DNA of 31,538 nt from Candidatus Altarchaeum sp. (GTDB lineage Archaea; Altiarchaeota; Altiarchaeia; Altiarchaeales; Altiarchaeaceae), in assembly GCA_018260615.1 (NCBI GenBank), contig JAGWDQ010000079.1, positions 19,391 to 50,928 on the forward strand, written 5' to 3'. Both the position numbers and the translations under genes were made by a program. Position 1 is the first letter of the stretch. Each line of letters starts with the position of its first letter. The notes under the pieces are model-generated. The model had not been told where the DNA came from and ran no database searches. It was given only the letters and a program-made list of their open reading frames with translations. This document shows positions 5,737 through 25,557 of this stretch, piece by piece.

Positions 5737-7056
5737 TTAATGCATATGTCTCCACCAAATGTTTTTCACATAATCTCTAACGGTTTTGCTTGGATCGTCC
5801 TTTAACTTTTTAATAATTGCTTTTGCATTAGGAATTCTGTCAATGTTCTTTGCAGCCATCTGAACAGCATACCATCTGACACCATCGTATTTATCATTAG
5901 CAAACATTTCTAATATTTTTTGTGATGTTTGAATGTTTATAATATTTTCAGAATACTTTGAAACAGCATCTGCAACACTTTCTCTAAAAGCATCATCAGG
6001 ATCTTTCATAAGTTTTTCAATTATTTCGTTCGCTTTTGGAAATTTATAAAAATTTTCCAAAAGCATTCTACACAAAGCAATTTTATTTTCACTTTTATAT
6101 TCCAATAAAATTCTTTCAACAAGATCAGAAATTTGCCGAGATTTACTTTCATCTATTTTTTCAGAAATTAAATCCCTTAATATTTGTATTTCCCCGCTTT
6201 CGCTTTCCATTGAAATTTTATTGATAAAAGATTCTGAAAATTTATTTCTATATATCTGAGCAGGATAATTCCATTTTTCTTTAATTATCTTTATTGCATC
6301 GTTTCTAACACCACTATATTCATCCTGAGCAAGTTTTTCCAATAATTTTGCAGCGTTTGGAATCTTGTCAAAATGTTGGTTTATTACTCCTACAACACCA
6401 ATTCGTACATATTCATTTTTATCTTCTGCCAACATTTCTATAATTTTATCAGCATTTGGAATCTTATCAAAATGTTCTTTTATCACATCAGGAACCTTGT
6501 AAGGTGTATATATACTATATTTACGATTCATCAATCTTTCTATAATTTTTGAAGCATTTGGAATCTTATCAAAATAGTGATTTATTATATCTGTAACATA
6601 CACGCATTTATATTTATCATTTGACCATCTTTCTATAATTTTAGCAGCATTTGGAATCTTATCAAAATTTCTATCTATTGATTCGGCCGCGACTATTATT
6701 CCATACATCTCTCCTTTATCAAATACGCCTCCATCATAATATGATAATTCCTCAACAAGATTTGCAGCATTTGGGATATGATCAAAGTTTCCAACTATTG
6801 GAGGGAAAGCAGGGCAAATCCTAGGATTTCCTCTAACAGCGCCCGTTGGACCATATATTAATTTATCCATCTTTGCTTTTCTAAGTAGATCAGAAACTAA
6901 TAAAAAGACAAAAATTGCTACGAGTATAAAAAGAACAATTTCTGGTAAAGTGACACAATAAATAATTCCAATTACAATTATAAAAAAAATTATAGTGAGG
7001 AATATTAAAATAGTTTTCCAATTGTTTTTTATACTTTTCTGTGCATACTCTAACAT
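5737..7056 (-). CDS. Membrane-anchored alpha-helical (HEAT-like) repeat protein with FDKIPNA repeats
   Basis: Two N-terminal hydrophobic segments. Five FD[KH]IPNA units spaced 31-40 aa apart, plus degenerate FYKFPKA and IDRIPNA. HEAT-like L.xD...VR motifs. Confidence 0.75.
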   Translation of the reverse strand: MLEYAQKSIKNNWKTILIFLTIIFFIIVIGIIYCVTLPEIVLFILVAIFVFLLVSDLLRKAKMDKLIYGPTGAVRGNPRICPAFPPIVGNFDHIPNAANLVEELSYYDGGVFDKGEMYGIIVAAESIDRNFDKIPNAAKIIERWSNDKYKCVYVTDIINHYFDKIPNASKIIERLMNRKYSIYTPYKVPDVIKEHFDKIPNADKIIEMLAEDKNEYVRIGVVGVINQHFDKIPNAAKLLEKLAQDEYSGVRNDAIKIIKEKWNYPAQIYRNKFSESFINKISMESESGEIQILRDLISEKIDESKSRQISDLVERILLEYKSENKIALCRMLLENFYKFPKANEIIEKLMKDPDDAFRESVADAVSKYSENIINIQTSQKILEMFANDKYDGVRWYAVQMAAKNIDRIPNAKAIIKKLKDDPSKTVRDYVKNIWWRHMH

Positions 7057-7116
7057 TTTATCTAAATTTCCTTTATTTTATTTTTAAATTTTCTAAAACG
7101 CAAAATTACACAACCA

Positions 7117-7203
7117 TTATCTGCTTAATTCCCCTAATATTTCAGTTGTATCCGCTTCTTCTACCGACTTATCATCCCTAAACCTGACTAATCTCGGAAC
7201 TCT
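7117..7203 (-). pseudogene. Remnant resembling the extreme C-terminus of an ATP-dependent DNA ligase
   Basis: Manual translation gives RVPRLVRFRDDKSVEEADTTEILGELSR*. This resembles the ligase OB-domain tail (LRFPRxxxxRxDKxxxxADT) as recalled from archaeal ligases. No upstream ligase sequence is present. Confidence 0.65.
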
Positions 7204-7214
7204 GTACCTATTCA

Positions 7215-7835
7215 TCATTTGCCGATCTTTCTATAATTTTTACAGCGTTTGAAAATCTTATCAAAATACTTTTTTAAAACGTCAGTATATCTAATAGGAG
7301 TATCATCTATATCTCCTATGATTCTACTATTTTCTATAATAATATCATCTGTGATTTTTTTTGGAATCTTATCCAAATGCTTTCTAAAAACTTCAGCAGC
7401 TTTATCTCTAACATCAATGGATTCATCTTTCATCAACTTTTTTAAAATTTCAGGAGCATTTGGAATCTTGTCAAAATGCCAATCTATAGCTTTACAAACA
7501 CCTATTTTTATTGCCCAATCTTTACTCCAAGAAGCTTCCTCAACAAGTTTTGCAGCATTTGGAATTTTGTCAAAATTTACAAGAATTGGTGCAGTTGGTA
7601 AATCGTGCCTAGGTCCTCTAACTCCAATATTTACTTCACCAAGAAAATAGTATCTCATTTCCTCTTCTTTCTGAAATTTATAAACATATAACACAAAAAC
7701 ACCTACAATAAAAAACATAAGAATCGTCATTGAAATGTATTGCGGCAATCTGCGAAAAATAAAAATTACAAATATTGTAACAAAGATAATACTTACAATA
7801 GTTATTCCCCGGTCCTTTATATTTTCAAGGTTCAT
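7215..7835 (-). CDS. Shorter paralogue of the FDKIPNA-repeat membrane protein, with a probably frameshifted/truncated C-terminus
   Basis: Same architecture as 5737-7056 (2 TM, then P..P..vNFDKIPNAAxLVEE). In the last repeat, GATAAGATTTTCAAACGCTGTAAAAATTATAGAAAGA realigns to the repeat consensus only if one T is removed. Confidence 0.7.
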   Translation of the reverse strand: MNLENIKDRGITIVSIIFVTIFVIFIFRRLPQYISMTILMFFIVGVFVLYVYKFQKEEEMRYYFLGEVNIGVRGPRHDLPTAPILVNFDKIPNAAKLVEEASWSKDWAIKIGVCKAIDWHFDKIPNAPEILKKLMKDESIDVRDKAAEVFRKHLDKIPKKITDDIIIENSRIIGDIDDTPIRYTDVLKKYFDKIFKRCKNYRKIGK

Positions 7836-11756: not shown

Positions 11757-13217
11757 TCACATAATCTCATCCGTTAGTTTCATCTGCTTTTCACTTACCG
11801 GAGAAATTCCCGTAAGGCATGCATCGCATAAATTTTTTGTTCCGATTGCTTTGAATAGCCCTTCTATGCTTATATACTGCAAAGAATCCGCTCCTATCAG
11901 CGAGACAATTTCACCAGCACTCTTATCTCTTGCTATAAATTCCTTTGCCGTCTGCATATCTATTCCAAAGTTGCATGGAAATTTTATTGGCGGACACGAA
12001 ACCCTTATATGAACCTCTTTTGCTCCTTTATCCCTTAAAATTTTTATGAGTCGTTTTATGGTGGTTCCCCTTACAATAGAATCATCAATAAGAATTATTC
12101 TCTTCCCTTCAACCTCTGTTTTTATGGGATTTAATTTTGTGCATAATTCTTTCTCCCTGTCCGCCTGATTCGGAAGAATGAATGTCCTTCCGACATATCT
12201 GTTTTTCATAAGCCCTTCACTGTAACAAATTCGCTTCTTATTTTCAATGCACCATTCTGCATATCCGATTGCAGCAGTAATCCCGGAATCCGGAACCGGA
12301 ATGACAATATCCGCATCAACATAACTTTCGCTCGCCAGAATTTTTCCCATCTCTTTCCTGACCTGATAGACAGAAGCGTTATTAATAACACTGTCAGCCC
12401 TCGCAAAATAAACATACTCAAACATACAATGGGAAATTTTGTCTTTTAAGACAGAATATGTTGATGATGAAATTTTATCGTTTTCTTTTTCATATACGTA
12501 CTCAGCAACAAAAATTTCTCCCGGTTCAACATCCCGCAGGTATGAAAAACCGATTGCGTCCAATGCGCATGTTTCCGATGCAACACAAATTTCGCCTTCT
12601 TCATTCTTTCCGATAACTAACGGCCTGAATCCGTTCGGATCTCTTATGGCAATAACTTTATTCTGATACAGAATCACTAAACAATAAGAACCGACAATTT
12701 CTTTCATTGCCTGTTTCAGACATTCCAGAAAATTTTTGTTTGACGCATAATAGTGTGCAATCAGGTTTGCGATGACCTCGCTGTCAGTTGTAGTTAAAAA
12801 TGTCGCACCTTTTAACTTTTGTTTGATTTCTATTGTATTTACGATATTTCCGTTGTGTGCAATTGCAAAAATTTCATCGTTGCACTTTATCTGAATCGGC
12901 TGGGAATTTTCTATGGATGATGAGCCGGTTGTTGAATACCTTACATGGCCGATTCCCGTATTCCCTTCAATAAATTTATTTCGCAAAGCTTCAGGCACAA
13001 TACCCATATCTTTAACAATTTTTATGCCATTGCCTGCATTATTTGATACATTATTTGCATTACTAACAGAGGTTGCTATTCCGGCTGATTCCTGACCGCG
13101 ATGCTGCAGAGCAAAAAGTCCGTAATAAATTTTACTGTAAACATTTGTCCTTTCTTTTCCAACAATTCCGAAAATTCCGCATGCTTCCTTTACTTTTCTA
13201 TAAAATGTTCTAATCAT
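11757..13217 (-). CDS. purF: Amidophosphoribosyltransferase
   Basis: Propeptide then CGIFG; LQHRGQESAGI, GHVRYSTTG, AHNGN, RDPNGFRPL, CMFEYVYFAR, DDSIVRGTT and Fe-S cysteines (CPP..PC, CDAC). Start at ATG 13217 preferred; the ORF track gives 13238. Confidence 0.96.
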   Translation of the reverse strand: MIRTFYRKVKEACGIFGIVGKERTNVYSKIYYGLFALQHRGQESAGIATSVSNANNVSNNAGNGIKIVKDMGIVPEALRNKFIEGNTGIGHVRYSTTGSSSIENSQPIQIKCNDEIFAIAHNGNIVNTIEIKQKLKGATFLTTTDSEVIANLIAHYYASNKNFLECLKQAMKEIVGSYCLVILYQNKVIAIRDPNGFRPLVIGKNEEGEICVASETCALDAIGFSYLRDVEPGEIFVAEYVYEKENDKISSSTYSVLKDKISHCMFEYVYFARADSVINNASVYQVRKEMGKILASESYVDADIVIPVPDSGITAAIGYAEWCIENKKRICYSEGLMKNRYVGRTFILPNQADREKELCTKLNPIKTEVEGKRIILIDDSIVRGTTIKRLIKILRDKGAKEVHIRVSCPPIKFPCNFGIDMQTAKEFIARDKSAGEIVSLIGADSLQYISIEGLFKAIGTKNLCDACLTGISPVSEKQMKLTDEIM

Positions 13218-13293
13218 CTGAAAAATGTATCTTCTCAATAAAATAAGGCAAATTAAGTTATATCATCTCACTACCTTTATGAGATTTTAAATA

Positions 13294-13495
13294 AATTTGA
13301 AATAAGTTCGCTTCGCTCTCATTTAAAAATGCTACAAGCATTTTTAAAGATTGAAAACTTATAGTTTTCAGTATATTTTAAAATTCTTTGCGAATTTGAA
13401 ATAAGTTCGCTTCGCTCTCATATTTAAAATTCTTTGCGAATTTGAAATAAGTTCGCTGATACTCGGATATTTTAAATTTTACAAAAATTTAAAAT
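13294..13495. repeat. Array of AT-rich hairpins with GTTCGCTTCGCTC linkers (REP/BIME-like cluster A)
   Basis: AATTTGAAATAAGTTCGCT occurs three times (13294, 13393, 13439). Hairpins TTTAAAAATGC-TACAA-GCATTTTTAAA, TGAAAAC-TTATA-GTTTTCA and TTTTAAATTTT-AC-AAAAATTTAAAA. Confidence 0.85.
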
Positions 13496-13612
13496 GGCTT
13501 TACTTTTCAGTGAAAAATGTTATTTTTATATTTTGCCCCAAGTTTCCCACCCATCCGAAAAGCTTGGTGTAATTTTTTTTTGCGAGTAATTTAATTTAAA
13601 ATTATCTGTGAA

Positions 13613-13764
13613 TTTTTTATCGTACAGGAAAGTTCGTTTTATTAGTTCCTAACCTCGCTAACGCTCGGATATTTTCAAAACTCTGCGTTTTGAAAATCGC
13701 ACCAAGACACAGAGACACAAAGGAGTTATATTCTGTAACCTGGTGACTTTGTGGCTTTGTGTGA
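13613..13764 (+). mobile_element. ~100-bp MITE-like imperfect palindrome (copy B) carrying a 49-bp hairpin-module insertion at 13651-13699
   Basis: Aligns with the reverse complement of 22414-22511 (shared TTTTTTATCGTACAGGAAAGTTCGTTTTAT and CAC..AGACACAG.GACACAAAGGAG...TGACTTTG.G.CTT.GTGTGA) apart from the insert. Confidence 0.7.
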
Positions 13765-13815
13765 ATGTTCTTCTGAATTTTTTAATGGCTGGAAATATGG
13801 GCTTTACTTCAAATT

Positions 13816-14283
13816 TTAGGTTGTGCTAAAATGGCTAAATGTTTTTAAGAGGGTTGATAAAGGGCTGTTCGACCAAAAATCTTTAGTTGCTTCTTCAGAA
13901 AGTTCTTTTAACCCCATATCTCCAACTTTATCATTTACTGTTTCTCTGATTATAGCCCTTTCATCGTCTGACAACAAAACAACCATTTTTTCAAAATTTT
14001 TCCCGGGTTCAAGAAACCACCCGTTCTTTTTTACAATCATCTTTACTATATCTCTACTTATTGCTGTTGAAAGTTCAACCGAAACAGCGCCGGAAAAAGG
14101 TCCGTCAGGAGACATAGCATATTTAAAATCCTTGAACTCCTGTAAATTTTTCCGTTTTAAAAAATATCCAATTCTTTGTATGTGTGCAGGAGATATTTGC
14201 TTTTCAGGATGTTTAACCATCAGAGTTTTTACTAAAAATCCAATTACTGCTGCCGGTTTATATATGCTCTTTTTTCCTGTCAT
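13816..14283 (-). CDS. Hypothetical protein, possibly a SocA/Panacea (DUF4065)-like winged-helix antitoxin
   Basis: HIQRIGYFL...F.Y....GPFS..V..EL resembles the KLQKLxYF...YGPxS pattern of the family. The resemblance is modest. Confidence 0.5.
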   Translation of the reverse strand: MTGKKSIYKPAAVIGFLVKTLMVKHPEKQISPAHIQRIGYFLKRKNLQEFKDFKYAMSPDGPFSGAVSVELSTAISRDIVKMIVKKNGWFLEPGKNFEKMVVLLSDDERAIIRETVNDKVGDMGLKELSEEATKDFWSNSPLSTLLKTFSHFSTT

Positions 14284-14452
14284 TTTGGAATGTGCTGTTG
14301 TTTCTTCTGTGTTTCTAATTTCTTCTTTCCTTTGTTCCTCTTCTGATTCGTTTGTAGAAATTTCATTTTTTGAAAAGTGTTATTTTTGATATCGTGATAG
14401 GTATCAAAATGATTTTAAATTAATTATAAATTAGGAAATAAGAGTATAACTT

Positions 14453-15250
14453 TTAAATTTTGTTAATTTTTACATTATAAATTTCTCCCCCCATATCTAC
14501 AAGCGTGCAAACAACAATTGCCAGCGCCTTTTCAACCGCATATTCATTTGTTCCCGTAATCTCTACGAATAAATTTTTTGTTTCCGTAGTTACCTTTGTG
14601 CGGTCGGCATTTATGATGGGCGGCATTGAAACAGCATCGTTATTTGCATCAACAATGAGCGGAAATTGAGCAAAATTTTTTATTATTTTTCCATACTCAA
14701 TTCCTTTCGGAGACATTCTTAAAATTTCATCCAAGTCCATAGAACTTTCAAAATTTAGAGGTATAAATTTATATTCCTTTGGATTTACCGCTTTATAGGT
14801 AACCGGAAATTTTAAGACATCTAAATTGTGAATACCTATCGCCACCTTTTTCCTGTTCCTTCCATGCGTAATGTGCAGTTTCTCCTGAATATTCATCAGG
14901 GATTTTAGCCGTGCATCCGTTATGGTTAAATTTTTTACTATTGCAGAAGATATAAATGGTCTGACCGGTTTAACTGACGCATCAACAAAAATTTCACCTC
15001 CATCTATCTCGTCATTAACTTTGTAGGTATTAACCTCTTTTTTGAGCCCTAAAAAATTTTTCAACGCCCTCGCAAATCCCTCAACACACAGCATATCTGG
15101 CCTGTTCGGAAAAATTTCCATTACTGCTTTATCCCTGTCAAGACATTCCATATCAACTCCGAGCATCGGAATCCTTTCTCTTAAAAAATTTAAGTCGCTG
15201 ATTCCTGTTAATTCAGTTAATTCGTTTGTGTTAAATTCTACCGTAGGCAT
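14453..15250 (-). CDS. pheT: Phenylalanyl-tRNA synthetase beta subunit, N-terminal half only (through the B3/4 editing domain)
   Basis: Archaeal-type start MPTVEFN, then EIFPNRPDMLCVEGFARAL, LMNIQEKLHITHGRNRKKVAIGIHNLD and MPPIINADRTKVT. Stops at 265 aa before B5 and the catalytic-like domain. Confidence 0.85.
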   Translation of the reverse strand: MPTVEFNTNELTELTGISDLNFLRERIPMLGVDMECLDRDKAVMEIFPNRPDMLCVEGFARALKNFLGLKKEVNTYKVNDEIDGGEIFVDASVKPVRPFISSAIVKNLTITDARLKSLMNIQEKLHITHGRNRKKVAIGIHNLDVLKFPVTYKAVNPKEYKFIPLNFESSMDLDEILRMSPKGIEYGKIIKNFAQFPLIVDANNDAVSMPPIINADRTKVTTETKNLFVEITGTNEYAVEKALAIVVCTLVDMGGEIYNVKINKI

Positions 15251-15452
15251 TTTGTTTATAAAAATAGAATATTAAAAGAAATTAATAAAATTAATAAAAT
15301 AGATTATTAAAAATTAGCAAAATGAATAAAAATTTAACTAAAAATTTAACTAAAAATGTTAAGTTCGTTTTTCAAAACGCAAAACACCATGTATGTTCCT
15401 GTTTTGAATCCGCTATAAAGGAAAAATTTCCTGAAATTTCAAAGTAATATAT

Positions 15453-15595
15453 AACCTCACTTACGCTCGGATATTTTCAAAACTTTGCGTTTTGAAAATA
15501 ACCTCACTCACGCTCACTTCGTTCGTGTATTTTCAAAATCTCTGTGATTTTGAAAATCGTTCGGATATTTAAAATTTCTATGAGAAAATTTAAAT
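15453..15595 (+). repeat. REP/BIME-like hairpin cluster C
   Basis: ACCTCACTTACGCTCGGATA, hairpin TATTTTCAAAAC-TTTGC-GTTTTGAAAATA (15472-15500), linker CTCACTCACGCTCACTTCGTTCGTGT, hairpin ATTTTCAAAATC-TCTGT-GATTTTGAAAAT (15529-15557), then a third imperfect hairpin. Confidence 0.85.
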
Positions 15596-15669
15596 AATCT
15601 TAAAAATAATTGCCATCATTAATAAACAAATATAAAAGAGTTTAAATTTAATTTTTACATTAACAAGTA

Positions 15670-18600
15670 ATGAAAATGGAGCCGAAATATCTTACTGAGA
15701 GAGACATTCTGAATTATGCTGATTCACCAAGTATATTTGCACGGGGAAGAAATTATTATTATAATGGAAACATAATATACATGAAGGTAATTGAAGAAAA
15801 TAAAGAAATTTGTGCAGAAGTTAAGGGAAACTACGGCATATATGACATTACAATTACTTTTGGTAAGAATGCGATTCACAGCAACTGCACATGTCCTTAT
15901 GATGGCAAGGGCTGTAAGCATGTCGTCGCGGTTTTACTTAAATTTCTCAATGAATTCAAAGACGCAGCCAAAGATAATTCAAACACATCTTCCAGAGCAA
16001 ACACAAACGCGCTGACTGAAAAAGATGAGGACTTATGGAATTTCTCTCTGGACGATATCGTGAAACACACCTCAAAACAATCCGTTTCTGACGCCTTTGA
16101 TATTTTAACCGAAAAGAGGATAAAGATAAAGTCCTTAACCGACAGGGAAATGCTCACGGAGATAGATGAAAAAATCACTGCTTTTCGTCCGTGGGAAAAA
16201 CAGCTTGCAAGGGATAATGTAAAAGTCCGCATATACAGAAGGGGCTTTGATGAGCTCCTTTCATTTCAGACACAGTGTAATTGTCAGCCCTACCACGAGC
16301 ACTCAACATGCAAACATACTGCCGCATCGTTGCTCGCTTTATTTCTGCAAAAAAACAAAAAACAAATATCCGAAGTAAAAGAAGAACATATATCCAAAAT
16401 CCGCTCCGAACAGTTTTATGGTTTCATTCACGAACTTAATTCATTATCTCCTGAAAAACCAAAGGTAAACCCTGAAAGAAATTATTTATTTTATTTTAAT
16501 GCAGAGAAACATACATCCTCTTATGACAGTTACTTCTCAATCTCAATAGAAAAAAGATGTATCCTGAAATCAGGTATTCCGGGAGCACCAGCCGATGCCA
16601 CAACTAAATTTATAAGAGAGTATTACGATACAATACCTGATAAGAGGAAAAAAATTTTTGACATGTTTATCTGGAATTTAGAGCATGAAAATAAATGGCT
16701 TAGCTCATCAGAAAAACTTGTTAAGAAAAAATTTGATGAAAGAGACGACAGCAGGTTGTTGAGTGAGATGAAAAATTTATATCTGGCAGATCCGCATGCG
16801 TTTCAGAACTGCATATTCCCATCTGAAAAAGGCGAAATTGAGATTAATATTAGCGAAGACAAAAAACGAAAAAAGGCAGCCCTTAAATTAATGATAAATA
16901 TAGGCGAACAAAAATTTCCGGCTAATAAAAAAGATGTCGGTTTTCTTGGAAAAGACCCTTTATGGGTTTCCATCTCTGACAATAAAAAAAATAGTTTTAT
17001 TTTGTTTGAACTGGAATGTCCTCACCAGGGAATCATGAGGAAACTGTCGGAGTTTTCTGATGCGGAAATAGAAATCAGCCAGCTGAATGACATTATAGAA
17101 AAATATTATCTGAACTTATCCGCAATAGGAAAGGTTGTGCTTCCGGAAGATTATGATGTTGAAGAACAAAAATTTGAGGTGATTCCCCGTTTGTATCTCA
17201 GGGACTACGGCGAGTCATTTGGGATTGAGCTGCGGTTTCTCTATGCTCAACAGGAGGCATTATACACCGGCAGGCAGGATATAGTGTTTAAAAACGAAAA
17301 CGAAAAAATTATCAGGATACAAAGAAACCGGGAGAAAGAGAATGCCTATTTCAAAGTCCTTCTTGACCATTACACAACAGAACGCGGCGATTTGCTTATC
17401 CCCTCCATAGACCCTTATCTCTGGCTGACTGATGTAGCAAATGATTTAATAGCAAAGGGTTATGAAATTTATGGAAAATCCGAATTACTTAATAATAAAA
17501 TCACTTCGGAAGAGCCAAAACTGAAATTAGAGGTCTCAAGCGGGATTGACTGGTTTGATTTAAAAGGAGCCGTATCTTTCGGAAAAGAAACGGTTTCTTT
17601 TGCTCAAATACTTTCTTCAATAAACAGCAATGAGCGGTTTATTAAACTGAGTGACGGAAGAACAGGCGTTATCCCTAAAAAATGGCTTAATAAACTGTCT
17701 GGTATCACAGGTCTGTTAGAGCGGGATGAAAAAAATGAAAGTGCAAGGGCATCAAGGTCGCAGATTGCCATTATAGAGGCGTTGCTCGATATCTCGGAAA
17801 AAACGACGGTTGATAAAAAATTTAAACAAATCAGGGAGAAATTTTCCGGTTTTAAGAAGATAAAACATATTTGTCTCCCTAAAAAACTGCAAGGTGAACT
17901 GAGGGACTATCAGAAAGCCGGCTATGACTGGCTGCATTTCCTGAAGGAGTTCGGTTTGGGGGGATGCCTTGCGGATGAGATGGGACTGGGCAAAACAGTT
18001 CAGGCGCTGAGTTTGCTGCTTTACGAAAAAGAGCATGGTATTAAAACACCTTCACTTATCGTAGTTCCGACATCTCTTGTGTTTAACTGGGTGAATGAGA
18101 TTAGGAAATTTACTCCGTCCCTTGATGTTTATGTTCATCACGGGCTTGAAAGAGAACGAGACGGCAGAAAAATCTGGGAAAAACATGCGGATATAATCCT
18201 GACAACTTACGGGACTTTAAGGAATGACGCGGATATGTTTAAAGATAAGGACTTCCATTATGTGATACTTGATGAATCACAGAATATAAAAAATCCTCTC
18301 TCAAAGACCGCCGGAGAAATATATCATCTGAAATCAAGACATAAACTGGCGATGACCGGAACGCCGATAGAAAACAATTCTCTTGAATTGTGGTCGCAGT
18401 TCGCATTTCTCAACCCGGGGCTGCTGGGAAACATAAATTACTTTAAAGAGACATTTGCAAAGAGCATTGAAAAGGAGAAAGACGAATATAAAACGAATGC
18501 ACTTAAAAATATAATAAATCCGTTTTTACTGATGAGGAAGAAGGAGATGGTTGCAAAGGATCTTCCGGAAAAACAAATTTCCCTATCCTACTGCGAGATG

Positions 18601-19290
18601 GAGCCGAAACAAAGAGAAATTTATGAAGCCCATAAATTTAAAATCAAAAAGGAGATAGAGGATGCGATAAATGAAGGTGGCTTCATGAAATCCAGGTTTA
18701 AGATATTGCAGGGGCTTATGAAATTAAGACAGATATGTAATCATCCGGTACTTATTGACGAAAGCTTTAAAGGAGAATCCGGTAAATTAAACATGCTGCT
18801 GGATCAGATTGAGGAAGTTATTGCCGGGGGGCATAAGGTTCTGGTTTTTTCTTCATTTGTCAAAATGCTGCATGTTTTCCGCAGTGAATTTGAAAGAAAA
18901 GGTATAAAATTTTCCTATCTTGACGGAAGCACACGGATGAGCGACAGAAAAGATGTCGTGGAGAAATTTCAGAACGATTCGGGCATAAGCGCATTTCTCA
19001 TCAGTTTGAAAGCGGGAGGGCTTGGTTTAAATTTAACCGAAGCGGATTATGTGTTTATTGTTGACCCGTGGTGGAATCCGGCGGCAGAAATGCAGGCAAT
19101 GGACAGGACACACAGGATAGGGCAGAAAAAGAACATATTCGTTTATAAAGCGATTACAAAAGACAGCATTGAAGAGAAAATACTCCAGCTTCAGGAAAGC
19201 AAACTGAATCTTGTTAAGAATGTGATTGCAGTTGATGAAGGGATTTTTAAGAAATTAGGCAGGGAAGATATTGAAAAGTTGTTCGTATAG
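15670..19290 (+). CDS. SNF2-family (SF2) ATPase/helicase with two N-terminal SWIM zinc fingers
   Basis: SWIM motifs CTCPYDGKGCKH and CNCQPYHEHSTCKH. Helicase motifs LADEMGLGKT, ILDESQ, MTGTPIENN, VLVFSSF, SLKAGGLGLNL and QAMDRTHRIGQ. Confidence 0.93.
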   Translation: MKMEPKYLTERDILNYADSPSIFARGRNYYYNGNIIYMKVIEENKEICAEVKGNYGIYDITITFGKNAIHSNCTCPYDGKGCKHVVAVLLKFLNEFKDAAKDNSNTSSRANTNALTEKDEDLWNFSLDDIVKHTSKQSVSDAFDILTEKRIKIKSLTDREMLTEIDEKITAFRPWEKQLARDNVKVRIYRRGFDELLSFQTQCNCQPYHEHSTCKHTAASLLALFLQKNKKQISEVKEEHISKIRSEQFYGFIHELNSLSPEKPKVNPERNYLFYFNAEKHTSSYDSYFSISIEKRCILKSGIPGAPADATTKFIREYYDTIPDKRKKIFDMFIWNLEHENKWLSSSEKLVKKKFDERDDSRLLSEMKNLYLADPHAFQNCIFPSEKGEIEINISEDKKRKKAALKLMINIGEQKFPANKKDVGFLGKDPLWVSISDNKKNSFILFELECPHQGIMRKLSEFSDAEIEISQLNDIIEKYYLNLSAIGKVVLPEDYDVEEQKFEVIPRLYLRDYGESFGIELRFLYAQQEALYTGRQDIVFKNENEKIIRIQRNREKENAYFKVLLDHYTTERGDLLIPSIDPYLWLTDVANDLIAKGYEIYGKSELLNNKITSEEPKLKLEVSSGIDWFDLKGAVSFGKETVSFAQILSSINSNERFIKLSDGRTGVIPKKWLNKLSGITGLLERDEKNESARASRSQIAIIEALLDISEKTTVDKKFKQIREKFSGFKKIKHICLPKKLQGELRDYQKAGYDWLHFLKEFGLGGCLADEMGLGKTVQALSLLLYEKEHGIKTPSLIVVPTSLVFNWVNEIRKFTPSLDVYVHHGLERERDGRKIWEKHADIILTTYGTLRNDADMFKDKDFHYVILDESQNIKNPLSKTAGEIYHLKSRHKLAMTGTPIENNSLELWSQFAFLNPGLLGNINYFKETFAKSIEKEKDEYKTNALKNIINPFLLMRKKEMVAKDLPEKQISLSYCEMEPKQREIYEAHKFKIKKEIEDAINEGGFMKSRFKILQGLMKLRQICNHPVLIDESFKGESGKLNMLLDQIEEVIAGGHKVLVFSSFVKMLHVFRSEFERKGIKFSYLDGSTRMSDRKDVVEKFQNDSGISAFLISLKAGGLGLNLTEADYVFIVDPWWNPAAEMQAMDRTHRIGQKKNIFVYKAITKDSIEEKILQLQESKLNLVKNVIAVDEGIFKKLGREDIEKLFV

Positions 19291-19379
19291 ACATTTATAT
19301 TTGCATCAAAATTTAATTTATTCATCCATAATTCTTAATTATAAATCAGGAAAAATTTTAAAATTTAATAAAATTATAA

Positions 19380-20744
19380 TTGGAGGGAATGTATCAAAAA
19401 CAACTCAAAGAAATTATAGAAAACGGTGAAACCGAGGAAGTAGAATTCAAGAAATCAACCGCACAGTTAGAAAAGGGTCTGAGAGCAATATGTGCTTTTT
19501 TGAACCACAAGGGCGGGGCAGTATATTTCGGAATTGATAATAAGACCCTGGTCGGACAGCAGGTCTCTGACCCCACCTTAAGATCAATATCTCAGAAAGT
19601 CAGGCAGAAGATAAAGCCGGAAATAACTCCGGAAATTACTGTTCATGGGGACGGCAGGGAGAAGATTATAAAAGTTGCGGTAAAAGAAGGACTTAATAAA
19701 TTATATTATTTAGATGGAGTTGCTTACAAAAGAGTCGGAACAGAAAATCCTATAATCCCTCCGGAAGAAATTGAGAGAATTATTACGGAGAAGCGAAAAA
19801 AGGGCTGGGACTCTGAAATTTGTGAAGGAGCATGTCTGAAAGACATTGATTCAGAAAAAGTAAAGTGGTTTTTAAGAAAAGCAAAATATGAGAGAAATTT
19901 TGAGGTTGATCCTGAGACGCCCGTAAAAGAAGCACTTGAACGGCTGAAATTAATCAGAAATGAAAAATTGACAAATGCTGCTGTTTTGTTGTTTGGAAAA
20001 GATACACAAAAATTCTTCCTGCCGGCGAAAATAAGATGCGCCCGGTTTAAAGGAACAGAACCACTGGAGTTCATAGATATGAAGGTCTTTGAAGGGAATA
20101 TTATTAGTCAAAGAGACGACGCACTTGAATTTGTAAAAGAGCACATTAAACTACACGCAAAAATTGTTGGAACTGAAAGAGAGGAAAACTGGGAGTATCC
20201 GATAGAAGCGGTAAGGGAAGCGATTACAAATGCCATATGTCACAGGGATTATGAAATAGCAAGTAATGTCCAGATTAGAATATTTAATGACAGAATTGAG
20301 ATATGGGGCTGCGGACATTTACCTGAGCCGCTCAAATTAGAGGATTTAAAAAGAAAACACGATTCTTTGTTAAGAAATTGTTTAATAGGAGAGTGTTTTT
20401 TTCTGATTAAATTTGTGGAAGAATGGGGAACAGGAACAAACAGGATACTTAAGGAATGTTTAGATCATGGGCTGCCTGAACCTTTATTTGAGTTAATTGC
20501 GGAAAACCTTGTTGTAACTATTAGAAAGTATAAGATTACGGATGAAATTTTAAAGGAGCTAAAAGAAGAGGAAAAGAATATTGTAAACCACATTCTAAAA
20601 CATGAAAAAATTTCAAGAAAAGAAGGTGTGACCATCCTTAAAGTTTCACCGGCTACGGTATATAGATACTTTAAATCATTAGAAAACAGGGGAATCATAC
20701 AAAGAATGGGAAAAGGGAAAAATATTTATTATGTGTTGATGTGA
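19380..20744 (+). CDS. AlbA_2/Schlafen-like domain + HATPase_c_4 (RecG C-terminal-like) + HTH protein
   Basis: ETEEVEFKKS, ICAFLNHKGGAVYFGI, YPIEAVREAITNAICHRDY, EEWGTGTNRI and a C-terminal HTH (ISRKEG..ILKVSPATVYRYFKSL). ATG at 19389 is an alternative start. Confidence 0.88.
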   Translation: MEGMYQKQLKEIIENGETEEVEFKKSTAQLEKGLRAICAFLNHKGGAVYFGIDNKTLVGQQVSDPTLRSISQKVRQKIKPEITPEITVHGDGREKIIKVAVKEGLNKLYYLDGVAYKRVGTENPIIPPEEIERIITEKRKKGWDSEICEGACLKDIDSEKVKWFLRKAKYERNFEVDPETPVKEALERLKLIRNEKLTNAAVLLFGKDTQKFFLPAKIRCARFKGTEPLEFIDMKVFEGNIISQRDDALEFVKEHIKLHAKIVGTEREENWEYPIEAVREAITNAICHRDYEIASNVQIRIFNDRIEIWGCGHLPEPLKLEDLKRKHDSLLRNCLIGECFFLIKFVEEWGTGTNRILKECLDHGLPEPLFELIAENLVVTIRKYKITDEILKELKEEEKNIVNHILKHEKISRKEGVTILKVSPATVYRYFKSLENRGIIQRMGKGKNIYYVLM

Positions 20745-20746
20745 AT

Positions 20747-20777
20747 GAAACGAATTTGAAACGAATTTGAAACGAAT
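20747..20777 (+). repeat. 11-bp tandem repeat GAAACGAATTT (about 2.8 copies) just after the stop codon
   Basis: GAAACGAATTT GAAACGAATTT GAAACGAAT read directly. Confidence 0.85.
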
Positions 20778-20814
20778 AAAATAACTAATAATCAGATTTT
20801 ATATCACCATAATC

Positions 20815-20936
20815 GTAATTTCTCAATAAGTTGGGGCAAATAAATTTTGTAACTGCTCGTTTTATAAAAAACAAACACAAAAAATGCAAAACAATTATAT
20901 ATTTTATCATCTTTCCACAAGTTATTGAGAAGTTAC
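20815..20936. repeat. 22-bp imperfect inverted repeat enclosing a 78-bp AT-rich spacer (MITE-like)
   Basis: GTAATTTCTCAATAAGTTGGGG (20815-20836) vs the reverse complement of 20915-20936, GTAACTTCTCAATAACTTGTGG: 19/22 identical. Confidence 0.6.
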
Positions 20937-20940
20937 CTTG

Positions 20941-21097
20941 TTTGAAAATCTCCGAACGATTTTCGACGCAAAGTTTTGGAAATACGCGATTTTCAAAACC
21001 GCAGAGGTTTTGAAAAGACACGAACAAAGTGAGTGGAACGGAGTGAACGTAAGTGAGGTGATTTTAAATTTCCCACAGAAATTTTAAATCTCCGAGC
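20941..21097 (-). repeat. REP/BIME-like hairpin cluster D (inverted relative to cluster C)
   Basis: The reverse complement contains ACCTCACTTACG, CACTCACTTTGTTCGTGTCTTTTCAAAACC-TCTGC-GGTTTTGAAAATCG, AAAACTTTGCGT and GAAAATCGTTCGGAGA, the same modules as 15453-15595. Confidence 0.85.
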
Positions 21098-21118
21098 AAC
21101 CGCAAGGTGATGTAGCAG

Positions 21119-21158
21119 GGAAACAAAATGTTGAGAATAATTCTCATAAGACAATGTG
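21119..21158 (+). pseudogene. Degenerate duplicate of the cobC translation-start region
   Basis: 36/40 identical to 21181-21220. Reads MLRIILIRQCV* vs MLRVILTRHCE. Confidence 0.8.
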
Positions 21159-21189
21159 TTTAAATCGCCCTATATAGTATGGAAACAAA

Positions 21190-21819
21190 ATGTTGAGAGT
21201 AATCCTCACAAGACACTGTGAAACGGAATGGGCAACTGAAAAAAGGTATCAGGGAAACAAAGATGTTCCTTTAAATGATGTTGGAAGAAAGAATGCCGTC
21301 TTGCTCGGAAACAAAATTAAGACCTTAAATTACAAAATTTCAAAAATTTACTCGTCCTGTTTGTCAAGAAGTTATGAAACAGCAGGAATAATTTCAGAAC
21401 ATAATGGCTTTGAATCCATAGAGAAAATTTGCGAACTTAATGAAAGAAATTTTGGCGACTGGGAAGGCATGACATACAACGAGATTGAGAACAAATACGG
21501 AAAAACCAAGACGAATGAATATTTAAACAACCCGTTAAATTTTCCAGTCCCGGATGCAGAGATATTTAATGACTTTAAAGACAGGATATTAAAAGGACTA
21601 AATTTTATCCTCAATGCGAATAAAGAAGAAATAAAAGATGGCAAAGAGCACACAATAATTGTTGTAGCACACGGCGGCACAAATCGCATTATAATCTGCA
21701 ATGCGTTAAATTTATCGTTTGAAAATTTTTTCAAAATAAAACAGGACTTCGGATGTTTGAATGTAATTGAATTTTATGAAAATTTTACCGTTGTTGATTT
21801 GATGAATGGAAATATTTAA
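21190..21819 (+). CDS. cobC: Histidine phosphatase, likely alpha-ribazole-5'-phosphate phosphatase
   Basis: RH(C)ET, IYSSCLSRSYETA, LNERNFGDWEG and VAHGG. Lies directly upstream of cobU. Confidence 0.75.
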   Translation: MLRVILTRHCETEWATEKRYQGNKDVPLNDVGRKNAVLLGNKIKTLNYKISKIYSSCLSRSYETAGIISEHNGFESIEKICELNERNFGDWEGMTYNEIENKYGKTKTNEYLNNPLNFPVPDAEIFNDFKDRILKGLNFILNANKEEIKDGKEHTIIVVAHGGTNRIIICNALNLSFENFFKIKQDFGCLNVIEFYENFTVVDLMNGNI

Positions 21820-21840
21820 AGAAATTTAAAGAAATTAAAA

Positions 21841-22389
21841 ATGCTTATCTTTATTTTAGGCGGAGTCAGGAGCGGGAAAAGCAAATATGCAGGCGAAATT
21901 GCGGATGAAATTTCAAAAAATGAAAATAAAAAAGTTATCTATATTGCAACATACAGAAATGACGGAAAGGATGCCGAAATGACTGAAAGAATTGAGAAAC
22001 ATAAAAAACACAGACCTGATGAATGGACTGCGGTTGAGACAGGAAAAATTTCCGATGTGGGATTAAAGATAAAAGAAATAAGAGATGCAATAATTATAAT
22101 TGACTGCATGACCCTTCTCGTGTCAAATTTTTTGTTTGAGGTTAAGAATGCCGATGAAGATAAAATAACAAATGAAATTGAAAAAATGCTCAAAGAAATC
22201 AGGGAAGGAATAAAAAAGAACAATAATAAAGTAATAATAATTTCAAATGAGGTCGGACAGGGAGTTATTCCCGCAAATAAAATTTCAAGAAAGTATGCGG
22301 ATTTACTCGGGAGGGCAAATCAGCTCATTGCAAAACACTGCGCTCAATTTTATTTTATGTTTGCGGGCATTCCGAACAAGATAAAGTGA
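21841..22389 (+). CDS. cobU: Bifunctional adenosylcobinamide kinase / adenosylcobinamide-phosphate guanylyltransferase
   Basis: GGVRSGKS P-loop, YIAT, RIEKHKKHRP, IDCMTLLVSN, ISNEVGQG and LLGRANQ. Confidence 0.92.
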   Translation: MLIFILGGVRSGKSKYAGEIADEISKNENKKVIYIATYRNDGKDAEMTERIEKHKKHRPDEWTAVETGKISDVGLKIKEIRDAIIIIDCMTLLVSNFLFEVKNADEDKITNEIEKMLKEIREGIKKNNNKVIIISNEVGQGVIPANKISRKYADLLGRANQLIAKHCAQFYFMFAGIPNKIK

Positions 22390-22413
22390 AAAAGTCAAAT
22401 TTTTAAAAGAATA

Positions 22414-22511
22414 CTCACACCAAGTCGCAAAGTCACAGAGTGTATTTCTCCTTTGTGTCCCTGTGTCTCCGTGTGAGGCTCATAAAACGAACTTTCCTGT
22501 ACGATAAAAAA
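22414..22511 (-). mobile_element. ~100-bp MITE-like imperfect palindrome (copy E, uninterrupted) between convergent cobU and secD
   Basis: Arms TCACACCAAGTCGCAAAGTCACAGAG and CTCCTTTGTGTCCCTGTGTCTCCGTGTGA, followed by ATAAAACGAACTTTCCTGTACGATAAAAAA, which is the reverse complement of 13613-13642. Confidence 0.7.
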
Positions 22512-22520
22512 ACAAAATTT

Positions 22521-24182
22521 TCACTTCGTAATATATTCCACAATCTTTGCAAATGCCGGCCTTGTAATGATTACTCCGATCAGGACTCCTGCAATTGTTG
22601 TAAATGCAAATCCCTTAAGCATTCCCGCCTCAACACCCATTAACGCAAGCATAACAACTATTATTGTTCCCGCACTTACAAATATTATAAAAAATGCGTT
22701 TCTGATTCTTTCTACAATACTGACAACCTCTTTTTTCTTTCCCCTCTTTAATGTTTCATCAAGAATTATTATCTGGTTATCTACTCCTGTTCCGACAACA
22801 ATTATTATACCTGCAATCGCAAGTAAATCAAGTTCCCAGTGAATCATTGATGCGAACCCCAGTATTATTATTATCTCGCTTAAACAGGTAAGCATTACAG
22901 GAATTGCTAATTTCAGCTTCCTGTACCTGATAAAAATTATTAGGGAAACAACAATAATTGCTATTATTCCGATTATTGCAGAAATGCTTAAAAATTTCTC
23001 CCCCAACGCAGAGTCAAATGTTGTCTCCTTCCCTCCGCACTGTCCTGTATTTTCGGCAAATGTTGTCCCGCATATAGGGAGGATTTTTATAGGCAAATTT
23101 CCGGAACTTAATAAGACCTGTGTGGCAATTACCTTCTTTTCAGCATCTGCTTTTGTCGGGCTGTTTCCTTCTATTGACGCTTCATATACCGGCCCAGGTG
23201 AAAAGATATTAAGTTTGGGAGAACTTTGAAGTCCGGTAAGTTCTTTTACCCACTCGCCGTAAATTTTATCACCTTTTGGCTTTCTTATTACTTTAAATCC
23301 GTTTTCGGCGATGAAATTTTCAACCTGAATTGTAATATTATCGTTTTTGTCCTGTGCTATAATTATTGTGTTGATACCACTGTTTTTTAATTCATCTAAC
23401 TGTGCTTTTAGGTCGTCAAAGTCAAAATTTTCTGATGTAACACCTTCATTATTTTCGCCGTTGTTCGTCTTTATTGTCTTTATTTGTGTAATTGGAATCT
23501 GGGACCTGTTTTCTATTATATAAATCCCGTTATCAAATCCGTGAAAGGCAATATCCCAGCCCTCTAATGTCTGGAAACTTGTCATTGAATGAAGACGATT
23601 GTATGTTTCTTCCGTAAGCAAAACGGATGTATTTTCAGGAGCGTCTATGAAAGAGTCAATAGGTCTGCCAAATTTGCCTGCAATTGCCTCACCGAACCTC
23701 TTTGCACCTTCAACATTATGTCTGACTGCAACATGCCACCGATATCCTCCGCCGGTAGACAGAATTGCTACGCCCCTGCTTGATGTATCCAATGTTAATT
23801 CGTCTCCTTTAATGGCTAATTTTCCGTCTACTCTCTCAATATATTTGGCCTGGCGCATTATTATACTTTCAATTTCATGAATCTGCTCGGGTGAGGCCTT
23901 TGCCATCTTTACGACCAGAAACTGATCCCCCCATGTAACAACCTGAATATCTCTCAGTCCCATGCCGTTCAGCCGGTTTTCAAGAATTGTTTTCATTGCC
24001 TGCATTTCTTCGGTGCTGTTTGCAGAATGTTCAAGTTCTAATTCAATATAAACCCCTCCGACAAAGTCCGAACCGAAATTTAACGGTTTAACATATAAAA
24101 ATACAGCAGATAATATTATTGCAGTGAGCAAAAGCAATATTTTCCAGTTCTTCAACATCCTGACGAATGACTTTTTTTCCAT
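22521..24182 (-). CDS. secD: Protein translocase subunit SecD (archaeal type)
   Basis: N-terminal TM + GSDFVGG, LENRLNGMGL, large extracellular domain, LSSGNLP, and five C-terminal TMs with GTGVDNQIII and LKGFA. Confidence 0.92.
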   Translation of the reverse strand: MEKKSFVRMLKNWKILLLLTAIILSAVFLYVKPLNFGSDFVGGVYIELELEHSANSTEEMQAMKTILENRLNGMGLRDIQVVTWGDQFLVVKMAKASPEQIHEIESIIMRQAKYIERVDGKLAIKGDELTLDTSSRGVAILSTGGGYRWHVAVRHNVEGAKRFGEAIAGKFGRPIDSFIDAPENTSVLLTEETYNRLHSMTSFQTLEGWDIAFHGFDNGIYIIENRSQIPITQIKTIKTNNGENNEGVTSENFDFDDLKAQLDELKNSGINTIIIAQDKNDNITIQVENFIAENGFKVIRKPKGDKIYGEWVKELTGLQSSPKLNIFSPGPVYEASIEGNSPTKADAEKKVIATQVLLSSGNLPIKILPICGTTFAENTGQCGGKETTFDSALGEKFLSISAIIGIIAIIVVSLIIFIRYRKLKLAIPVMLTCLSEIIIILGFASMIHWELDLLAIAGIIIVVGTGVDNQIIILDETLKRGKKKEVVSIVERIRNAFFIIFVSAGTIIVVMLALMGVEAGMLKGFAFTTIAGVLIGVIITRPAFAKIVEYITK

Positions 24183-24220
24183 TTTTAGTATTCTATAAAG
24201 TATATGTTTTTCATTGGTTT

Positions 24221-24420
24221 CTCACACCAAGACGCAAAGGAGTTATACTGAAAATCTGTGAGATTTTCAATCTTTAAAAATCTGTTGATTTTTAAATCAC
24301 CTCGCTTGTGCTCGGAGATTTTAAAAACTTCGTTTTTAAAATACTGAAAATCTGTGAGATTTTCAATCTTTAAAAATCTGTTGATTTTTAAATACTCTGT
24401 GGCTTTGTGTCTTTGTGTGA
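24221..24420 (+). mobile_element. MITE-like palindrome (copy F) interrupted by a hairpin array containing a 53-bp direct repeat
   Basis: Left CTCACACCAAGACGCAAAGGAGTT and right CTCTGTGGCTTTGTGTCTTTGTGTGA match copies B and E. 24245-24297 = 24341-24393. ATACT flanks the insert at 24245 and 24392. Confidence 0.7.
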
Positions 24421-24441
24421 ATATTTTATCATTTTCCATTT

Positions 24442-25557
24442 TTATTCGTGAAATAATGAAAATTTAAATAATTTTTTTCTTCTTATGTTTGTTGTTTTTC
24501 TTTCAACATACCATTTTAATATTCCCGTATTCATCAACCATGTTGAAAATATATCCATAAAAAGTCCGCATAATATTACCATTGAAAGTTCGCTAAGTAC
24601 TTCAATTTTCGGTGTTGTGAGATTTGAAACAATTAATATTGTCATAGCTGCTCCCATTGCTGCAAATGTCATAGTCAGTCCGGTTTTTATGGTTTCATCT
24701 ATGGTTTCATTAACACGTGTTTTTCTGTTTAATATTCTGGTTGTTAATAATATATCCGTATCAACGGAATATCCCAACAACATAACCAATGCAAGCAGGG
24801 TCGGTAAATTTAATTCTATTCCGAATATTGACATACAGCCCGCTGCAAATATTATATCTATTAATGCCGCCGCAAGAATTGCCACTGTCGGAACAGGTAT
24901 ACGATAAGCAACAAATATAACAAAGGTAATCAGGATAACTGCAATAATAAACGCCCGTATCATTTCCTCCTTTAAATGAGCACCAAGCACAGGACTTACA
25001 CTTCCGACATTTGCGTTTGCCGGCTCAAAAGAATAACTGCCTCTGCTAAAGTCAATATCATAATTAACATCCGATAAGATTCCTTTCATTTCTTGTTCGC
25101 TCATTTGCCTTCTTTCTACTATAATGTTTGTGCTGTCGTCATTGCCGGTTATTTTTATTTCATTTCCAAAACGACTTTCTAATTTTTCTTCGGCATCACG
25201 CAAAATTTTATAATTTAAATTTACTGCAAATATGTTCTTTGTATTGAGTTTTCCGGTATATTTTTCTGCAAGTGAAAGAAATTCAGCGTTGGAAATTTTA
25301 GAGGTTGTTGTTATTTTAATCGTATTTCCGTCATCTGAAATTTTTAAATTTTCCAGATTAGCATTACTTAATCCGTTATGTAAGTCATTTATCTGACTGT
25401 CGGATAATCCATAAATTTCAAGCGACATACCTCCGCTAAAATCAAAACTCATCTGAAATCCGTTAATTGCTATGAACGCAAGCATAACAATTGCTATGAC
25501 TATTGGAATTGCCATCAATATCTTATATGGAATCTTTGCCGTTAGTTTTGAATACAT
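24442..25557 (-). CDS. secF: Protein translocase subunit SecF (archaeal type)
   Basis: SFDFSGG, VGSVSPVLG, LLGYSVDTDILLTTR, TGLTMT and six TM segments. Confidence 0.92.
   Translation of the reverse strand: MYSKLTAKIPYKILMAIPIVIAIVMLAFIAINGFQMSFDFSGGMSLEIYGLSDSQINDLHNGLSNANLENLKISDDGNTIKITTTSKISNAEFLSLAEKYTGKLNTKNIFAVNLNYKILRDAEEKLESRFGNEIKITGNDDSTNIIVERRQMSEQEMKGILSDVNYDIDFSRGSYSFEPANANVGSVSPVLGAHLKEEMIRAFIIAVILITFVIFVAYRIPVPTVAILAAALIDIIFAAGCMSIFGIELNLPTLLALVMLLGYSVDTDILLTTRILNRKTRVNETIDETIKTGLTMTFAAMGAAMTILIVSNLTTPKIEVLSELSMVILCGLFMDIFSTWLMNTGILKWYVERKTTNIRRKKLFKFSLFHE

Follow-up and report, generated by a model that had tools for sequence, protein, structure and literature searches.

Some bacterial repeats are modular: the BOX elements of pneumococci (A-B(n)-C), found together with RUP, and ERIC, which has internal inserts, are built from units in variable number, with one small repeat family lying inside another at fixed sites; RUP has an IS630 partner. 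Among archaea, the transposase-free SMR-A repeats of Haloquadratum walsbyi insert preferentially in PATEs, and also in IS605-type elements (Dyall-Smith et al. 2011, PMC3119063), and a 2024 census of MITEs (miniature transposable elements with inverted repeats) gives Candidatus Altiarchaeum hamiconexum 146 of them per Mb, the highest density among archaea, marking the genus as rich in MITEs (PMC11602168). Here we analyse a 31,538-nt stretch of DNA (the window) from a Candidatus Altiarchaeum metagenome-assembled genome (MAG; G000, 2.23 Mb in 148 contigs, 33% GC, 87% complete), which contains three copies (B, E and F) of a small host element together with arrays of still smaller hairpin modules, of types A and B, that occur both inside host copies and on their own. 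Comparisons were made with three sister-species MAGs (G001-G003) and with contigs L026 and L027 of Ca. A. hamiconexum. Our data suggest that the host element and its modules are probably mobile DNA of two tiers, both non-autonomous and without genes.

Copies B, E and F had been predicted from the window alone to be intergenic copies of one element, and all three belong to a single family of 107 copies, counted as genome-wide occurrences of a 26-nt head motif (with up to 3 mismatches) in G000. In gapped alignments to three consensus backbones (S1, S2 and S3), 91 copies reach the tail; 32 of these are uninterrupted and 59 are interrupted by 45-390 nt at a few recurrent sites. The element is ~107-128 bp long, encodes no gene and is composed of a conserved 30-nt head (TTTTTTAT-CGTACAGGAAAGTTCGTTTTAT), a variable spacer, an imperfect CACA/TGTG hairpin of ~64-70 nt whose arms repeat GACAC/GTGnC every 8 nt, and a T-run tail (the GCATTTTTTA or GTATTCTTCTGATTTTTTTA variant). 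The palindrome is long and imperfect, with periodic unpaired bases and strand-specific pairing, and the hairpin is ~5 kcal/mol more stable as the top strand (-26.5 versus -21.9, -30.3 versus -24.9 and -27.8 versus -23.0) because positions of the 5' arm that vary between A and G lie opposite T in the 3' arm, forming G.T or A-T pairs. Variants of spacer, arm, loop and tail are found in many combinations, as reticulate mosaics, indicating that host copies have recombined with one another.

The sister genomes G001-G003 contain 0-5 weak matches to the host family, compared with 107 copies in G000, and the exact head motif was found neither in other species of the genome contig collection nor in IMG/VR. 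If the two-tier reading is correct, the family would have multiplied to ~107 copies after the split from the sister species. The 30-nt head also precedes an unrelated body (CCAAAYTATGAAYTCTCA...GATAATATCTGATATAATGTC) that is present in a single copy in G000 (C110:973-1065) and in a few copies in G002 and G003 (the further loci being L003, L005 and L072); at L072, this head-fronted body is itself split by a B module and an A module. Because an identical head fronts an unrelated body, the head is probably the site recognised by a putative enzyme.

Comparison of orthologous sites points to insertion of the host element at T-runs. Copy F lies antisense within the secF-secD operon, at a site that is empty in G001, G002, L026 and L027: there, secF adjoins secD. 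The junction has one GTTCCATTTTTA in relatives, and in G003 and three related metagenome contigs it holds ~45 bp of different sequence. A 9-13-nt duplication with TTTTTA at its end borders the insert on either side, and because the duplicated sequence carries the secF stop and the secD start, both genes are intact despite the 244-bp insert. Another host copy (C110:3947-4056) is missing from the G003 orthologue and occupies a TTTTTA-type site with a ~5-6-nt duplication. Copy E, uninterrupted and on the minus strand as predicted, lies between the convergent stops of cobU and secD, in a gap of 114 bp as compared with 40 bp in G001 and 45 bp in L027. (A scan of metagenomes for SecD found seven loci, none closer than ~89% amino-acid identity, and thus yielded no alleles from the same population.) Standard host copies have a T-run at either end, and adjacent (tandem) copies have one T-run in common. 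Many copies lie within 30 nt of a stop codon, with mixed orientation relative to the flanking genes. Where the tail abuts a stop codon, the gene is convergent in 49 cases and co-oriented in 21, as expected if TTTTTTA is the complement of TAAAAAA. Host orientation was unrelated to local GC skew (odds ratio 1.0, a weak test in a fragmented MAG).

The inserts found in host copies had been predicted to be discrete, and they are: each kind recurs as a unit elsewhere in the genome, at hundreds of loci, and is present in sister species. Type A consists of TCAC and CTCRCT(N3-6)YTCGGA followed by a variable AT-rich hairpin (7-14-bp stems, 3-8-nt loops), ~46-48 nt in total, and type B is a double hairpin of ~50 nt, ACTGAAA..TTTCAATCTTTAAAA..TTTAAAT. 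G000 contains 275 type A linkers and 219 type B junctions. Pattern searches of four Altiarchaeum genomes (G000 first) matched 245/51/147/95 A modules and 193/25/37/264 B modules, and reversed-pattern controls matched none. Neither pattern was found in the 37 other members of the class that were searched or in IMG/VR, and nearly all matches in the genome contig collection came from Altarchaeum/Altiarchaeales MAGs. Hairpins with perfect 9-bp stems number 1771 in G000 versus ~134 expected from an order-2 Markov simulation, and like the head and module counts this lies far above chance. Among 154 B units, the two hairpins have 38 and 63 distinct inner sequences and their stems remain paired; pairing in the second hairpin far exceeds that obtained when units exchange their 3' halves. 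Relative to genes, type A modules have no orientation bias (57:45), and type B modules are oriented 55:24, a ratio in which units within one array are not independent.

Presence or absence of repeats had been suggested from copies within the window, and it was found at orthologous or paralogous sites for copy F, for the C110 host copy and for a tnpB gene. Only one of six TnpB paralogues (C42) contains a 48-nt type A module, with TAAAT on either side; the other five do not. Comparison of sister loci with G000 yielded 63 candidate orthologous indels, including module-only gains and, in a gene, an in-frame array of 6 x 48 nt. The six paralogues represent copies (88-96% identity) of an insertion sequence of the TnpB-only kind, whose inverted ends read GAGTGATTTCGCTTT (C13, C24, C119, C69, C70 and C42; loci L035 and L036), and the C42 module lies in frame near the 3' end of tnpB.

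Within host copies, inserts recur at positions 51, 68 and 90-93 of S1, 37 and 92 of S2, and 31 and 100 of S3; all those in the 5' arm are in forward orientation and all those in the 3' arm are reverse complements. Arrays at S1 site 68 range from one to more than four units with differing hairpin variants across copies, and one loop site is filled by different B variants in different host copies. Nesting reaches three tiers, with an 86-nt insert that is a module within a module's linker and a 94-nt host insert that is a module within a module's loop. A single module at S2 site 37 is present in at least nine copies with unrelated flanks, indicating that host elements can still move once loaded and take their passengers to new loci. 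Many of the modules in host copies reflect one insertion followed by amplification of the composite, and since composites were amplified, the enrichment of modules in host copies (the host family makes up 2.8% of intergenic DNA) is inflated. Inside host copies lie 42 of the 275 A modules and 48 of the 219 B modules, leaving 78-85% outside, such that the host family is one context among many. Thus, of the proposal that mobile modules target a second repeat family, the presence of discrete units within host copies holds, and specific targeting does not.

At the copy B junction, CCT-[49 nt]-CACC replaces the CCT-CACACC of empty copies with the same backbone (e.g., on C66), leaving a 2-nt ambiguity without a target duplication. 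The predicted 49-bp insert is correct, but the copy extends beyond the predicted end at 13764 to include its T-run tail (Table 1). Near-identical modules occupy the same insertion site in host copies on C26 and C109, and a variant of the module is found at the equivalent site in at least nine S2-type copies. The ~147-bp array of copy F is bounded by ATACT as had been described; its two B units (family D10, 53-nt copies that are 100% identical and 96 nt apart) look like a local duplication. Apart from these identical B units, local slippage does not account for the inserts, further copies are numerous, and alleles with and without inserts exist.

Table 1. Host-element copies, modules and flanking duplications in the window (positions counted from its first nucleotide).
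Feature	Position	Strand	Description
Host copy B	13613..13784	+	Aligns end to end with S3-type consensus
Parts of copy B		+	T-run and head 13613-13642, spacer, interrupted CACA/TGTG hairpin, tail GAATGTTCTTCTGAATTTTTTA
Type A module in copy B	13651..13699	+	Linker AACCTCGCTAACGCTCGGAT and hairpin ATTTTCAAAAC-TCTGC-GTTTTGAAAAT
Host copy E, uninterrupted	22400..22512 (approx.)	-	Hairpin 22414-22478
Host copy F with cargo	24188..24431	+	244-bp insert splitting the secF-secD junction
Parts of copy F		+	Degenerate head 24188-24220; arms 24221-24246 and 24394-24420; tail end ~24429
Array in copy F loop	24247..24393 (147 nt)	+	ATACT on either side
Order of copy F array		+	B unit 24247-24297, A module 24298-24342, identical B unit 24343-24393
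Left direct duplication TTTTCCATTTTTA	24175..24187	.	Holds secD start codon
Right direct duplication TTTTCCATTTTTA	24432..24444	.	Holds secF stop codon and pseudo-start
Free-standing hairpin-module array	13271..13500	.	Outside host elements
Free-standing type A array	15441..15600	+	Three linker-hairpin units
Free-standing module array, reverse orientation	20931..21110	-	Right end of 1868-bp insertion

Several larger differences between G000 and its relatives surround these features. The 1273 bp at 13201-14473, which contain module arrays, copy B and an orphan open reading frame (minus-strand 13816-14283 or plus-strand 13823-14389) that matches nothing in Pfam, are replaced by ~36 bp in G001 and G002. 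The intergenic region around the free-standing type A array is 365 bp here versus 98 bp in G001. An 1868-bp insertion (19319-21186), absent from G001 and Ca. A. hamiconexum, comprises an AlbA_2/Schlafen-HATPase_c_4-HTH gene (19380-20744) and a module array, and after its right end the start of the histidine phosphatase gene occurs a second time, as a 49-nt duplicate with 86% identity (21110-21158 versus 21172-21220). Paralogues of the 19380-20744 gene cluster in a variable island on contig C82, in which two identical host copies flank paralogous genes; the island contains AlbA_2/HATPase_c_4 genes and archaeal ATPase paralogues, without a transposase. Separately, an element with ends TATAGCGTCAAAATGCCGTTGGAA is inserted in two G000 host copies (C78:~6270 and, on the reverse strand, C145 at ~17460) and is also found as a 450-bp insertion in a gene (C111:21946-22397) relative to G003.

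Other repeats and insertions were seen in passing. Sister genomes contain a different element of ~80 bp, whose ends are inverted (GTATTTGCTCAATA...TATTGAGCAAGTTC) and which has duplicated 9 bp of its target (CGCATTTTC); the equivalent G000 sites lack it (L072 compared with G000 C134:8501-8510; L027:9654-9746). At its left edge, the window has an exact 208-bp direct repeat (1-208 and 3168-3375, 3167 bp apart), and the region 6300-7600 contains repeats with a period of 93-102 nt in HEAT-repeat genes (5737-7056 and 7215-7835, minus strand). In the G003 orthologue of a G000 gene, 468 bp inserted in frame and ending ...VVHNT (L098:941-1410 versus G000 C110:6074-6076), which the G000 copy lacks, look like an intein.

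Two tiers of mobile DNA would account for these observations as follows. The host element would enter T-runs of the TTTTT(T)A type in a single orientation and duplicate the run in doing so. The A and B modules would be older, genus-wide units that come and go as discrete blocks where a short motif is similar to the ends of the module itself (TCAC, (T/A)AAAT and ATACT), and such end-like target motifs would explain the head-to-tail pile-up of modules, their entry into one another and their mirror-image entry into the host arms. After insertion, array length could shift by local duplication and deletion, segments could be exchanged among host copies by recombination, and a host copy carrying modules would still be mobile, dispersing its passengers. 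We infer that the events were insertions rather than precise deletions, that modules are targeted through end homology and that mobilisation occurs in trans. A more specific version, which is possible but doubtful, is that the host element and modules form an HUH-independent, hairpin-based mobile DNA system restricted to Altiarchaeum. A putative enzyme, or the replication and repair machinery of the cell, would recognise the portable 30-nt head and the strand-specifically folded single-stranded DNA, and placement of elements at motifs matching their own ends would produce self-nesting arrays and hairpin arms that always change together.

No mobilising enzyme is encoded in the window, as had been noted at the outset. 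IS66 DDE transposases are absent from G000, which has four weak DDE_Tnp_1 matches, nine TnpB genes and a single tyrosine recombinase gene, ~19 kb upstream of the window on the same contig. No autonomous partner was identified in G000: four or five solo heads are followed by unrelated DNA with no gene in common. A retroelement, in which the T-run would be a transcript end, was rejected because no reverse transcriptase was found in the assembly, and an IS200/IS605 origin was rejected for the lack of a Y1 gene, the unrelated TnpB ends and the absence of skew bias. A link to IS110 was rejected as well, since the single truncated copy (C73) has no k-mer of 8 nt or more in common with the host ends or the tail-head junction. 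At C73:1-1560, the start of the contig truncates an IS110-family (DEDD) transposase gene; behind it come tandem copies of AAAGCAAAAGTA, interrupted by an assembly gap, and then a GC-richer region of ~165 nt with a long closed structure (-60 kcal/mol for a folded 290-nt stretch), which could be the 3' bridge/seek RNA of an IS1111-type element.

Several observations, including the IS110 result, weigh against two tiers of mobile DNA. Searches for Y1 HUH (PF01797), suggested in the original prediction as a search for TnpA/RAYT genes, gave no match in G000-G003 while positive controls matched; the G000 assembly contains no reverse transcriptase; the inverted ends of the TnpB element are unrelated to host or modules; and no longer element with both host head and tail was found. 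Repeats flanking type A modules are no longer than in shuffled controls, so that target duplication does not exceed that of the control, and where they are present (TAAAT, TCAC, ATACT) they coincide with the module's own ends, a pattern compatible both with targeting of specific sequences and with events mediated by microhomology. The events could have run in either direction: G002 holds a host homologue with a B unit already in its loop, and empty copies reading ATATACTCTG could be precise deletions between ATACT repeats. Two host-internal junctions are not clean insertions, and the copy F duplication (9-13 nt or more) exceeds the ~7-nt T-run of standard copies. Finally, all genomes are MAGs (65-87% complete), and 80 of the 296 contig ends of G000 (27%) lie within 150 bp of a repeat block, making copy numbers and absences uncertain.

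Some of these points are shared by an alternative in which the modules are not mobile and recombination and slippage, rather than transposition, generated the mosaics, through template-switching during replication at hairpins, gene conversion among repeats and palindrome-stimulated deletion between short direct repeats, the "empty" copies being deletion products. This would be consistent with the reticulate mosaics of host backbones, with type A junctions at which microhomology to the ends of the module (TCAC, TAAAT) is all that is seen and duplication does not exceed that in the shuffled control, with the identical tandem units of copy F and of the 6 x 48-nt array in a gene, with array lengths of one to more than four units at one site, and with the negative transposase search. 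However, the same units of 46-50 nt are spread over hundreds of unlinked loci whose flanks are unrelated, including a TnpB gene and coding regions, and over four species at very different copy numbers, such that some dispersal is required, and the host element is found at new unique sites with T-run duplication. We consider recombination and slippage an unlikely explanation.

The host element could also be a multicopy structured-RNA or cis-regulatory cassette that is retained because it functions, whether to terminate transcription, to stabilise mRNA 3' ends or as a small RNA, and in which the modules are expansions that are tolerated. A T-run is an archaeal terminator signal and the element ends in one, the hairpin folds better as the top strand, the stems covary, and many copies lie close to stop codons. 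Yet orientation relative to genes is mixed, copy F being antisense in its operon; the family is nearly absent from three sister species that have those genes; 59 of 91 copies are interrupted; and an Rfam scan of window positions 13000-25000 (E<=1) produced no match at any host copy, its single match being a sub-threshold one to TYMV_upPK (22 bits versus a 38-bit cut-off, E 0.85) at 13339-13361, within a module array. Together, these data make a regulatory cassette improbable. Long imperfect palindromes with periodic unpaired bases and strand-specific pairing are likewise reminiscent of attC, and the host hairpins might be folded-DNA recombination sites of an integron-like, Xer-type cassette system; tails often follow a gene stop immediately, the 1273-bp insertion around copy B includes an orphan open reading frame, and two copies flank paralogous genes in the C82 island. 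Copies E and F and the C110 copy, by contrast, are solo insertions with no gene cargo, the consensus shows no GTTRRRY-type core, the assembly has a single tyrosine recombinase gene, and the family consists of 107 dispersed single copies rather than a cassette array, which together leave a cassette system very improbable.

Mobile two-tier repeats would have consequences for both the genome and its assembly. With the repeat library used, modules make up 1.45% of the G000 assembly and the host element 0.54%, and repeats that occupy at least 2% of the assembly and lie near more than a quarter of contig ends help explain why Altiarchaeum assembles poorly. They also remodel intergenic regions, copy F having parted two tightly coupled genes by 244 bp and left both intact by virtue of the duplication, and modules enter genes in frame. 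The repeats therefore offer a compact natural case of small mobile DNA without a known transposase, in a lineage without an IS200-type enzyme, and identifying the mover could reveal a new route of mobilisation.

How the Altiarchaeum repeats compare with described systems depends on the feature considered. Like BOX, RUP and ERIC, they have modular units in variable number and one repeat inside another at fixed internal sites; unlike them, they are not bacterial, their sequences are unrelated, and no partner was found for the Altiarchaeum element. Like MITEs, they are short, non-coding, high-copy, mostly intergenic and taxon-restricted, with insertion polymorphism between relatives, but the host ends (head TTTTTTATCGTACAGG..., tail ...GAGCATTTTTTA) are not inverted copies of each other, there is no related autonomous insertion sequence, and the host element inserts in one orientation at a T-run. 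The elements therefore do not qualify as classical MITEs, for want of terminal inverted repeats and an autonomous partner. The original prediction likened the modules to REP/BIME or REPIN elements, which also form high-copy intergenic hairpins and linkers in mosaic clusters, with covarying stems, near gene ends, and which have a high GC content, a GTAG or CGTC tag, an inverted-pair arrangement and an accompanying Y1 HUH RAYT gene (PMC3116915, PMC3733652). This assignment is rejected on every defining feature tested (Y1 HUH gene, tag and inverted pairs): the Altiarchaeum hairpins are AT-rich (e.g., TTTTCAAAAC/GTTTTGAAAA), their conserved flank is TCAC-CTCRCT..YTCGGA with no GTAG or CGTC tag, module arrays run head to tail (copy F, S1 site 68 and window 15441-15600) rather than in inverted or alternating pairs, and none of the four genomes encodes a Y1 HUH or RAYT protein.

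The nearest published analogue is the SMR-A/PATE pair of Haloquadratum, so that nesting of this kind had a precedent in an archaeon (PMC3119063). In both cases, small repeats of an archaeon that lack a transposase lie preferentially inside another family of small elements with palindromes, and neither has a known mobiliser or a regular target duplication (PMC3119063). SMR-A differs in having terminal inverted repeats and hosts derived from IS200/IS605 (PMC3119063), whereas the Altiarchaeum modules are linker-hairpin direct arrays found mostly outside the host family, in genomes with no Y1 transposase. Membership among IS200/IS605-derived PATEs is accordingly rejected, as there is no Y1 TnpA and the TnpB element ends are unrelated. 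Neither the consulted part of the 2024 MITE census (PMC11602168) nor further literature searches yielded a description of the host or module families or of their nesting. The concept is not new, since transposase-free repeats nested in another family are documented in bacteria and in Haloquadratum; the Altiarchaeum host element and its modules are an abundant, undescribed family of this known kind of selfish DNA.

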